Shown here: positions 1-2,091 of the stretch, in pieces
Numbering within the stretch: the stretch's first letter is position 1
Layout of the letters: each line of letters begins with the position of its first letter
IMG/VR virus record: IMGVR_UViG_2660238573_000008
Reading direction: 5' to 3' (one strand)
Length of the DNA: 4,507 nt
DNA from: a virus
Lineage: Duplodnaviria > Heunggongvirae > Uroviricota > Caudoviricetes
Notes under the pieces: model-generated
Databases searched by the model: none
Seen by the model: the letters and a program-made list of their open reading frames with translations, nothing else
Told to the model about the DNA's origin: nothing
Program-made: the position numbers and the translations under genes

Positions 1-159
1 TAGCACTGCCAGCTGAATAACACATCCCCGTCAATACGGCCCTCGCTGTACGCTTACTATTTATCAGGATTTATCGGTTTCTGAACCCTGGATATGTTTA
101 TCTGTCCCGGCCTGTTGAATCAGGCGGGGAAAAGGTAAAGACAATCAAGAGGATTATTT

Positions 160-432
160 ATGGACAATAACACCATTTCTCTACAGGAGTTGCTCGACTG
201 CATTTCAAAGCTTCGGGATGATGTAAATGCCCTCACTGTTGCATTTTCATATTTGGCCTTATCAATTCCCAGAGAACAAATGCAACCAACACTGGCATCG
301 CTCCTGCTTGAATCACGCAACCCCAAATGGTCCCAGGAACAACAAAATTCTTTCAAGTGGCTGGCGGCATTACTGGAAGAAAAATATGCTGGTAAAATTA
401 CCATTTCGGTGGAGTCTTCAGAGAATCAGTAA
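160..432 (+). CDS. Hypothetical protein, 90 aa, unknown function
   Basis: ATG at 160 preceded by AAGAGG about 8 nt upstream; stop TAA at 430-432. The translation (MDNNTISLQELLDCISKLRDDV...) has a mixed charged/hydrophobic composition that looks protein-like. I do not recognise the family. Its 3' end overlaps the ydfR-like gene by 35 bp on the opposite strand. Confidence 0.45.
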   Translation: MDNNTISLQELLDCISKLRDDVNALTVAFSYLALSIPREQMQPTLASLLLESRNPKWSQEQQNSFKWLAALLEEKYAGKITISVESSENQ

Positions 433-742
433 TTCTTCCTGGTAGCTTTCCTTTGTAGGTTATCCACACATTCTGCGCCTCTAAAATTACGGGGCGCTTT
501 TCCGGCGACTGCTCATCCCCTTCACATAACCCGGCTGCAACTTCCAGGAAGACCTGTCTGATGCTCCTTCTGGCTGCTGCCTCATAAAACTCCAGCGCGG
601 CACCTTCAACACGGTCCAGCGAGATGTCCAGGTCAAAAATTTCACCGTCAAAGCGTTTTTTGTCCCTTAATGCTACAGTTACCGCAACTTTATTCTCAAA
701 ATTGCGGATCCCTTTCACAATCAGTTCATAGTTTTGTGTCAT
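398..742 (-). CDS. ydfR: YdfR-like prophage protein, 114 aa from the ATG at 742
   Basis: Long minus-strand ORF directly downstream of the holin gene. The internal ATG at 742 is preceded by GGGGAGAG about 7 nt upstream and lies 4 nt after the essQ stop, suggesting translational coupling. The symbol rests on synteny with K-12 Qin as I recall it (essQ then ydfR), not on a verified alignment. Confidence 0.6.
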   Translation of the reverse strand: MTQNYELIVKGIRNFENKVAVTVALRDKKRFDGEIFDLDISLDRVEGAALEFYEAAARRSIRQVFLEVAAGLCEGDEQSPEKRPVILEAQNVWITYKGKLPGRITDSLKTPPKW

Positions 743-746
743 TGAA

Positions 747-962
747 TTACTCTCCCCGTGCAACCTTACGCTTGTCTTCTTTAATCTTGAAATAAAGGTT
801 TGTCAGGTACGTCAGCAAGCCAAATACCAGACTACCCAGCACACCGATTGCAGCCCACTGTGACGGAGTTACTTTATCGAGTAACTGCAATGCCCAGAAA
901 CCAGCATTACCAGCCGATGTGCCATAGGCGATACCTGTTGTTAACTTATCCATTGATTTCAT
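747..962 (-). CDS. essQ: Class II holin (pinholin), S21-like, 71 aa
   Basis: Translation [26 protein letters not shown]...[36 protein letters not shown] closely matches my recollection of phage 21 S / EssD-EssQ holins: two transmembrane segments, a charged C-terminus and an MKSM dual-start motif. RBS GGTGAGGA upstream of the ATG at 962. Confidence 0.9.
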
Positions 963-1433: not shown

Positions 1434-1714
1434 AATATTGTGGTACTTTTTGTGGGAGTCATCCACTTACGCACTTTGTTTTGCTATGCCAGCAGTTAGC
1501 TTCTGCTGTAAAACTATTCATGCAGCAAACCTGCACTTCACCACAATGGTTAGCATACTTTTCCTGATTAAGTTATTGCCAAATATGCTGGCCATTGTTT
1601 CATGTATTGGACCTCCTTACTCTTTATTAAAGAGATCCAATATTCACCACTCTGTCTGTATCTCCACTCAGGCATCAGCCTTCTTCGTTATCGTATACAG
1701 ACAAACTATGAATT

Positions 1715-1930
1715 TTAATCAGTAATTATGACATTTGCTGCTGCAGGACCTTTAGCACCACTCTCTACAGAGAAGGTAACCTTTTGACCTTCAAATAAGG
1801 TTCGATAATTATCATTCTGAATCGCAGAAAAATGCACAAACACATCTTTACTACCATCAACAGGAGAAATAAAGCCAAAACCTTTATCAGCGTTAAACCA
1901 TTTTACTAAACCAGTCATTTTATTTGACAT
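1715..1930 (-). CDS. cspB: Cold-shock protein CspB (CspA family), 70 aa
   Basis: Translation [71 protein letters not shown] carries the RNP1 (KGFGFI) and RNP2 (VFVHF) motifs and matches my recollection of E. coli CspB. RBS AAGGA upstream of the ATG at 1930. Confidence 0.93.
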
Positions 1931-2091
1931 TCTACATTCCTTAACTTGAGCCTTTCGGCATAAATGGCTTGTATAACAGAAACGACTTCGTACTTAATTG
2001 GAGAGACTCAAAGAAGGAATAAGTGAATAACACCTGAAATGAGAACTGCTTTAGTAAACTACTTCGTATATCGTCTGTTCTTCAAACCGAC
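1931..2091 (-). promoter_or_regulatory. Long cspB 5' leader (about 161 nt) with a cold-box-like element near its 5' end
   Basis: Minus-strand sequence GGTTTGAAGAACAGA (plus 2074-2088) resembles the cspA cold box region GGTTTGACGTACAGA. The leader length follows from the predicted promoter position; long leaders are typical of cold-inducible csp genes. Confidence 0.5.

Follow-up and report, generated by a model that had tools for sequence, protein, structure and literature searches.

A small gene convergent with ydfR in the lysis region of Qin-like prophages, probably a moron-like accessory gene

The plus-strand open reading frame at positions 160–432, here called gene X, is a genuine coding gene. 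It is probably an accessory gene carried on a segment of about 290 bp in the slot between ydfR and rrrQ, where it is directed against the late lysis operon and behaves as a moron. The window, i.e. the whole stretch of 4,507 nucleotides that was analysed, was identical by sequence match to part of the chromosome of E. coli 2013C-4974 (NZ_CP027587.1) and sits within a Qin-like lambdoid prophage. The features at its left end are as follows.

1–57, plus strand: right end of ISEc8 (IS66 family), with the terminal repeat ...CGCTTAC; the ISEc8 transposase is annotated there.
58–65: 8-bp target-site duplication TATTTATC, present on both sides of ISEc8 (L001).
160–432, plus strand: gene X, a 90-aa frame with ATG start (ORF list; RefSeq hypothetical protein WP_001315200.1).
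398–432: convergent overlap of 35 bp, encoding residues 80–90 of X (pLDDT below 50) and the end of YdfR, ...ITDSLKTPPKW-stop.
398–742, minus strand: YdfR-family (DUF1327) gene, 114 aa (PF07041, E = 8.9e-43; RefSeq; phrog_406).
747–962, minus strand: essQ holin (RefSeq).

RefSeq places ynfU, cspB, cspF, a ydfT/Q antiterminator gene and a DUF968 gene in the window as well. The Rfam model of the cspA thermoregulator matched the 5' UTR and coding region of cspB (1652–2091, minus strand; 156.7 bits, E = 5e-42), as expected of a cold-shock paralogue.

The original prediction had described a tail-to-tail overlap of 35 bp between X and the ydfR-like gene. This was confirmed, and RefSeq annotates both genes. 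The longest minus-strand frame in the ORF list spans 398–763, the RefSeq start being the ATG at 742. Against Pfam PF07041 the window YdfR scored 144.9 bits with a gathering cut-off of 25 and is thus a member of DUF1327; K-12 YdfR scored 179.9 bits, its tail fitting the model better than that of the window protein. The K-12 order given in the prediction, with ydfR followed by the lysozyme gene on one strand, was correct. In MG1655 essQ, ydfR (103 aa) and rrrQ share one strand, with an overlap of 4 bp between ydfR and rrrQ and no opposite-strand frame.

In all six sequences of the comparison, which reached down to 80% identity in DNA, the plus frame comprised exactly 90 codons and its pN/pS was 0.14–0.41. 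Two other plus frames, without shared third positions, gave values of about 0.6–8, mostly above 1. X was thus conserved and under purifying selection, and a lack of conservation, which had been named as an argument against a junction, was not observed. Antisense to X a second frame is found.

120–404, minus strand: 94-aa shadow ORF, its ATG overlapping the ydfR stop (ATGGTAA).

We considered whether this 94-aa frame is the real gene and the plus frame its shadow. It is co-directional with essQ-ydfR-rrrQ, its start looks coupled to ydfR as in translational coupling, and its pN/pS was also low (0.18–0.47), the third codon positions being common with X. Because of these common positions dN/dS cannot choose the strand; the two frames had nearly equal codon-position bias and gave similar values (pN/pS across 40 unique sequences was 0.39 for X vs 0.29 for the antisense frame), and this measure was dropped as a discriminator. 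The coding strand was instead settled by stop codons in diverged sequences and by distant homologues of the plus product. The minus frame contained one or two internal stops or had lost its ATG in four of the six sequences with an intact plus frame, and homologues at 24–42% identity exist for the plus product. The 94-aa product, which is Ser/Cys-rich and atypical in sequence, matched no family in Pfam or PHROG. A minus-strand gene is therefore most improbable, effectively refuted already, and we concluded that the 94-aa frame is the shadow of X.

The product of X had been called unrecognised, which was not completely so. X matched the HMM of phrog_2411 (unknown function) with E = 4.9e-57, residues 1–90 aligning to profile positions 1–90 of 90, and it is a hypothetical protein in RefSeq, yet it has no Pfam family or assigned function. 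Searches of Pfam, NCBIfam, PADLOC and PDB profiles returned nothing for X. In PADLOC (anti-phage defence, toxin-antitoxin) neither X nor YdfR matched a family at E ≤ 1, DUF1823 (Pfam PF08853) matched neither X nor two of its homologues, and no papers on the protein were found in the literature. The homology search and structure prediction that had been proposed as checks gave full-length relatives and three predicted helices. These relatives (81–97 aa, at the identities given above) emerged from a profile search against 1.8 billion representative proteins and a subsequent mixed-alignment search; they occur in Serratia, Sodalis, Yersinia, Citrobacter, Atlantibacter, Chania, Gibbsiella and other Enterobacterales, with a common core ...L(R)xxVNxLxxAFSYLAFS...FES.... 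AlphaFold2 modelled X with a mean pLDDT of 79 and three helices within residues 8–76, while residues 80–90 stayed below 50. X is thus predicted to fold as a three-helix bundle and to end in a disordered tail, the tail being the part that overlaps ydfR. X is acidic (pI 4.6, 10.2 kDa) and mildly hydrophilic (GRAVY -0.32). Such a product would be a small cytoplasmic helical protein that binds another macromolecule rather than an enzyme.

The opposite-strand frame had been taken to suggest a recombination junction near 400–430 that may also have altered the C-terminus of ydfR. Alignment with K-12 Qin and other lambdoid phages, the check proposed for this claim, supported the junction and the altered C-terminus but gave two nested mosaic boundaries in place of one junction, with breakpoints at about 64/65 and 534/535 and at 110/111 and about 403/404. 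They delimit the following parts.

58–110, plus strand: leader/spacer common to phages without X, which is the ydfR-to-lysozyme spacer in its uninterrupted form.
111–403, plus strand: mosaic segment absent from otherwise collinear phages (alignment with L004).
398–534, minus strand: C-terminal ydfR allele, residues 70–114, unrelated to the K-12 tail (nucleotide and protein comparison).

The inner boundaries were read from phages that lack X and carry the same ITGSLKTPP allele of YdfR, namely vB_EcoS-689R5 and H-19B. Homology to vB_EcoS-689R5 covered 58–110 (L004 1501–1552) and broke off; towards both phages it was back from 403–407 on, and about 290 bp in the window stand in place of 19 bp there (L004). 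Towards H-19B and PhiR5_1 the left-hand homology spanned 58–98. The segment 111–403 contains the Shine-Dalgarno sequence and codons 1–81 of X, and its minus strand provides ydfR with the final two codons and the stop. Since the right-hand joint falls directly after the T-P-P codons, the last residues of YdfR differ among the phages: KW-stop here, ESQP-stop in vB_EcoS-689R5 and LA-stop in H-19B. The base composition of the segment was not distinct (G+C 42.8% at 111–402, vs 43.9% for the window and 47% for ydfR).

The outer boundaries appeared against K-12. Homology at about 92% identity spanned 535–1000 and returned left of about 65, and 470 bp here replace 90 bp there. Window and K-12 YdfR were alike up to residue 69 (...RQVFLEVA), beyond which tails of 45 and 34 residues were unrelated. 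An identical K-12 C-terminus had been named as evidence against a junction; as the K-12 homology stops at residue 69, the junction survives. The K-12 and ITGSLKTPP-type tails were compared over window 398–534 and L003 5055–5158. Binding of K-12 YdfR to RNase E has been mapped to residues 1–72, residues 73–103 forming a separate helix (PMC13232886). The allele breakpoint at 69/70 therefore falls on a domain boundary.

In Qin-like prophages the slot from ydfR to the endolysin gene exists in three states, all of them common in E. coli. Of 5426 complete genomes of this species, the X segment was found at ≥80% coverage in 1202 (any match in 1221, about a fifth), with CFT073, UM146 and an O25:H4 strain among the carriers; the junction without the segment occurred in 1125 and the K-12-type junction in 1775. 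The slot can also hold other cargo. In PhiR5_1 it is taken, downstream of the same leader, by an unrelated 86-aa plus-strand frame (phrog_2572). We concluded that X is cargo put in a recombination-prone, hypervariable slot of the lysis cassette, which is how a moron behaves. A further inserted module in the same lysis region was seen in an E. coli lineage with deleted ydfR (L090 1589–2123), where a ParE-like/ParD-like toxin-antitoxin pair stands after the lysozyme gene together with a Rha-type gene.

The folded part of X (the three predicted helices) is encoded inside the mosaic segment, and the frame then crosses the right-hand junction and runs about ten more codons antisense to ydfR ...ITDSLKTPP to the first stop, resulting in both the 35-bp overlap and the disordered tail. 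By itself an overlap of 35 bp is statistically unremarkable; the plus frame just continues for these codons beyond the junction. What exceeds chance is that the tail-to-tail arrangement was repeated with diverged homologues at four different prophage positions. The convergent overlap is a recurring property of the module and not an accident of one junction.

These four positions are between ydfR and the endolysin gene R in the E. coli prophage, between tail genes M and L in Atlantibacter, between tail genes I and J in Yersinia and upstream of the holin gene in Citrobacter. At all four X lies opposite to the late genes, again as a moron would. The intact X of L090, whose ydfR is largely deleted, and the existence of stand-alone chromosomal copies point the same way. 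Outside prophages, X was found in the chromosomal order pyrC-dinI-X-bssS-solA, on the strand of its neighbours, in Serratia odorifera, S. marcescens and Chimaeribacter (L093 5001–5285; L114 2501–2782; L115 2501–2770). In E. coli K-12 dinI and bssS are presumably adjacent, with no gene between them. The homologue of Sodalis stands alone, and some E. coli have a copy behind an AIDA-type autotransporter gene, at least once on a plasmid.

The sequence around X was searched for signals of expression, and the candidates are listed here.

70–98, plus strand: weak candidate sigma-70 promoter TTTATC-17 nt-TATGTT, 7 of 12 consensus positions by our own scoring (putative).
86–98, plus strand: leader motif CCCTGGATATGTT, 13 nt, pattern CC[CT]TGG[AT]TATG[AT]T (motif search across loci).
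106–129, plus strand: hairpin CCCGGCCTG-TTGAAT-CAGGCGGGG, 8 of 9 pairs, 7 nt after the leader motif (read from the sequence).
147–153, plus strand: Shine-Dalgarno sequence AAGAGGA, 6 nt before the ATG of X.
475–503, plus strand: 7-bp GC-rich hairpin followed by UUUUCC, 43 nt past the X stop and inside ydfR (fold; overall z-score -0.85).

A site of AGGA/GGAG type preceded the ATG of X in most loci examined, and none was found in two copies from E. coli AIDA islands. The leader motif occurred as one copy on the same strand, 74–99 nt upstream of the X ATG, in the E. coli, Atlantibacter and Citrobacter loci, where by our own estimate about 0.002 copies per locus are expected by chance. Its positions elsewhere are about 4908 in L096, about 4902 in L098 and 1529 in both L007 and L006. 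Neither L090 nor the loci of K-12, Serratia, Sodalis and Yersinia contained it. The leader motif also precedes the unrelated plus-strand frame of PhiR5_1, and in H-19B it occurs without any cargo frame. About 7–12 nt after the motif the hairpin was found in other contexts too, where its sequence changes (CCAGTG/CACTGG, CAGCG/CGCTG) and the pairing is kept. The leader motif and hairpin travel with plus-strand cargo frames in several prophage slots.

The consensus scan called no plus-strand sigma-70 promoter and no intrinsic terminator for X, and the -35 element of the candidate promoter was not conserved in the Atlantibacter and Citrobacter leaders. By eye the leader showed no convincing LexA box and no convincing sigma-54, sigma-32, sigma-28 or IHF site, and no Rfam family matched window positions 1–500, which include the leader. 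If the candidate promoter at 70–98 is used, the hairpin at 106–129 lies at the 5' end of the mRNA and could be a 5' stem-loop of the transcript. The hairpin at 475–503 is a possible terminator for X; the terminator scan did not call it, and its sequence is also present in phages without X (the same in L004). From these elements we infer that the transcript of X would start in the conserved leader, with its motif and hairpin, and that X would be expressed in the lysogen, working as a moron translated from its own Shine-Dalgarno sequence. Its transcription would be independent of Q-dependent late transcription and convergent with it.

Bases 1–57 were matched by NZ_CP027587.1 alone, and every other strain matched from base 58. 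In O55:H7 CB9615 (L002) TATTTATC is single-copy and the lysozyme gene rrrQ begins just left of base 58; the insertion point of ISEc8 is 11 bp upstream of the rrrQ ATG. The element (L001 3609–6065), whose transposase gene has an internal stop according to RefSeq, now separates essQ-ydfR from the lysozyme gene by about 2.4 kb, and because of this the lysis cassette in the strain of the window is probably disabled. Many database copies of X were frameshifted into the 227–445 frame at several positions (94-aa products) or truncated by nonsense mutations (56 and 50 aa); broken copies are among proteins P0041, P0046, P0048, P0051, P0054, P0062, P0065, P0047 and P0058. They point either to frequent decay or to sequencing errors. 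On the former reading X is often lost in cryptic prophages.

X might accordingly be a decaying passenger of a cryptic prophage, functionless in this strain, with the overlap as a by-product of recombination. The frequency of frameshifted and nonsense variants, the ISEc8 element between the lysis genes and rrrQ and the lack of a promoter call in the consensus scan all fit such a passenger. The copy in the window is, however, intact and identical to those of many strains, pN/pS of X was well below 1 across sequences, and the family is retained at a syntenic chromosomal locus in other genera. We regard a decaying passenger as quite improbable and continue to favour an accessory gene with moron-like behaviour.

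At each of its four prophage positions X has a tail-to-tail overlap with a minus-strand frame that bears the C-terminal motif (I/F)(T/G)(G/D)SL(K/R/F)xP.

E. coli (window): partner YdfR, overlap 35 nt.
Atlantibacter (L096 5261–5476): partner a 71-aa frame, overlap 7 nt.
Citrobacter (L098 5239–5430): partner a 63-aa frame, overlap 14 nt.
Yersinia (L104 2677–2835 and L111 2718–2933): partners a 52-aa and a 71-aa frame, overlap 47 nt.

The partner frames of 52–71 aa probably encode coiled-coil proteins and could not be aligned with YdfR outside the tail motif. Pfam and PHROG gave them only sub-threshold coiled-coil matches, including SlyX with E = 0.053, and one of them matched phrog_1805 at its N-terminus (E = 5.6e-10). 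The tail motif is kept in the protein while the DNA diverges, and the leader motif accompanies X in three of the four prophage slots. In PhiR5_1 the tail motif lies inside a 211-aa DUF1327 fusion protein and is followed by a stretch similar to the N-terminal part of the small Citrobacter frame. No ITGSL-tailed neighbour accompanies the chromosomal copies of X, whether in Serratia, in Sodalis or in the E. coli autotransporter island.

Two readings offer themselves: recombination in the slot may prefer the tail motif and the leader as its joints, or X may form a functional pair with the tailed protein. In the latter case X and the minus gene it overlaps would be one convergent two-gene module. 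The two genes would be coupled by their complementary 3' ends, with antisense control or transcriptional interference between lysogeny and lysis, or by X binding the conserved ITGSLxxP tail of the partner. The recurrence of the overlap with this tail in every prophage context, the conservation of the motif at the protein level and the leader beside X in three slots are in line with such a module, as is the report that K-12 YdfR binds the catalytic half of RNase E and co-purifies with RNA (PMC13232886). The pattern comes from four contexts only, and the tail motif could simply be a preferred joint. In L090, whose ydfR has lost its N-terminal 72 codons, X was intact with low pN/pS, the chromosomal copies do without the partner, and many phages carry YdfR with the same tail and no X. 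An obligate pair of X and YdfR is argued against, because X survives without ydfR and YdfR is abundant without X. A two-gene module is on balance unlikely.

A more far-reaching form of this idea, which we consider speculative and decidedly unlikely, is a mobile convergent two-gene cassette of enterobacterial prophages, composed of X, the CCCTGGWTATGWT-plus-hairpin leader and an ITGSLxxP-tailed protein, that serves as a switch between the lysogenic and late lytic states. The switch may act via the 3'-overlapping transcripts or via a complex of X with the partner tail, and it might connect to the reported binding of RNase E and RNA by YdfR.

Taking X as a moron-like accessory gene, the finding is ordinary lambdoid mosaicism, because X is already annotated as hypothetical and is widespread. 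Its main value lies in annotation and interpretation: the coding strand is settled and the odd convergent overlap is explained as a module boundary. It also defines an uncharacterised family of small proteins of about 90 aa without a Pfam entry, which has a syntenic chromosomal counterpart beside dinI and bssS in Serratia. Of modest further interest are the leader, which is conserved, and the ITGSL-tailed partner that keeps recurring. Should the pairing with ITGSL-tailed late proteins have a function, prophages would offer a small new case of regulation by convergent genes; otherwise the mosaicism is routine.

Morons of lambdoid phages, e.g. bor and lom of lambda and gene 15 of HK97, classically come with a promoter and a terminator of their own, and their base composition often deviates. 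Like them X is small, varies in its presence between conserved late genes in phage genomes that are otherwise collinear and occurs at varied genome positions, and because of its orientation it cannot belong to the late transcript. In contrast to classical morons, its candidate promoter and terminator are below consensus and its G+C content is unremarkable, the segment having no distinct base composition. As a small accessory gene of the late region X also resembles the Qin inserts cspB, cspF and ynfU in the window and cspI, ynfQ, gnsB and ynfN beyond it, some of the small-gene inserts of Qin likewise lying on the opposite strand. These stress-related inserts belong to named families (cold-shock, GnsA/B and others), whereas X is assigned to no family in Pfam or NCBIfam and does not occur in K-12 Qin. 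The phrog_2572 frame of Escherichia phage PhiR5_1 agrees with X in slot, orientation, leader motif and tail-to-tail overlap with a DUF1327 gene and is similar in size, but no sequence similarity to X was detectable. The N-termini looked alike by eye, BLASTP was empty and homology was rejected. This frame was deposited as 'DUF1823 containing', and its score of 15.3 bits lies below the Pfam cut-off of 25. The gene between dinI and bssS in Serratia and Chimaeribacter differs from X in its fixed chromosomal locus, in sharing the strand of its neighbours and in having neither an overlapping partner nor a CCCTGGWTATGWT leader, but it is homologous (about 30–40% identity to the family alignment), equal in length and built on the same AFSYLAF...FES core.
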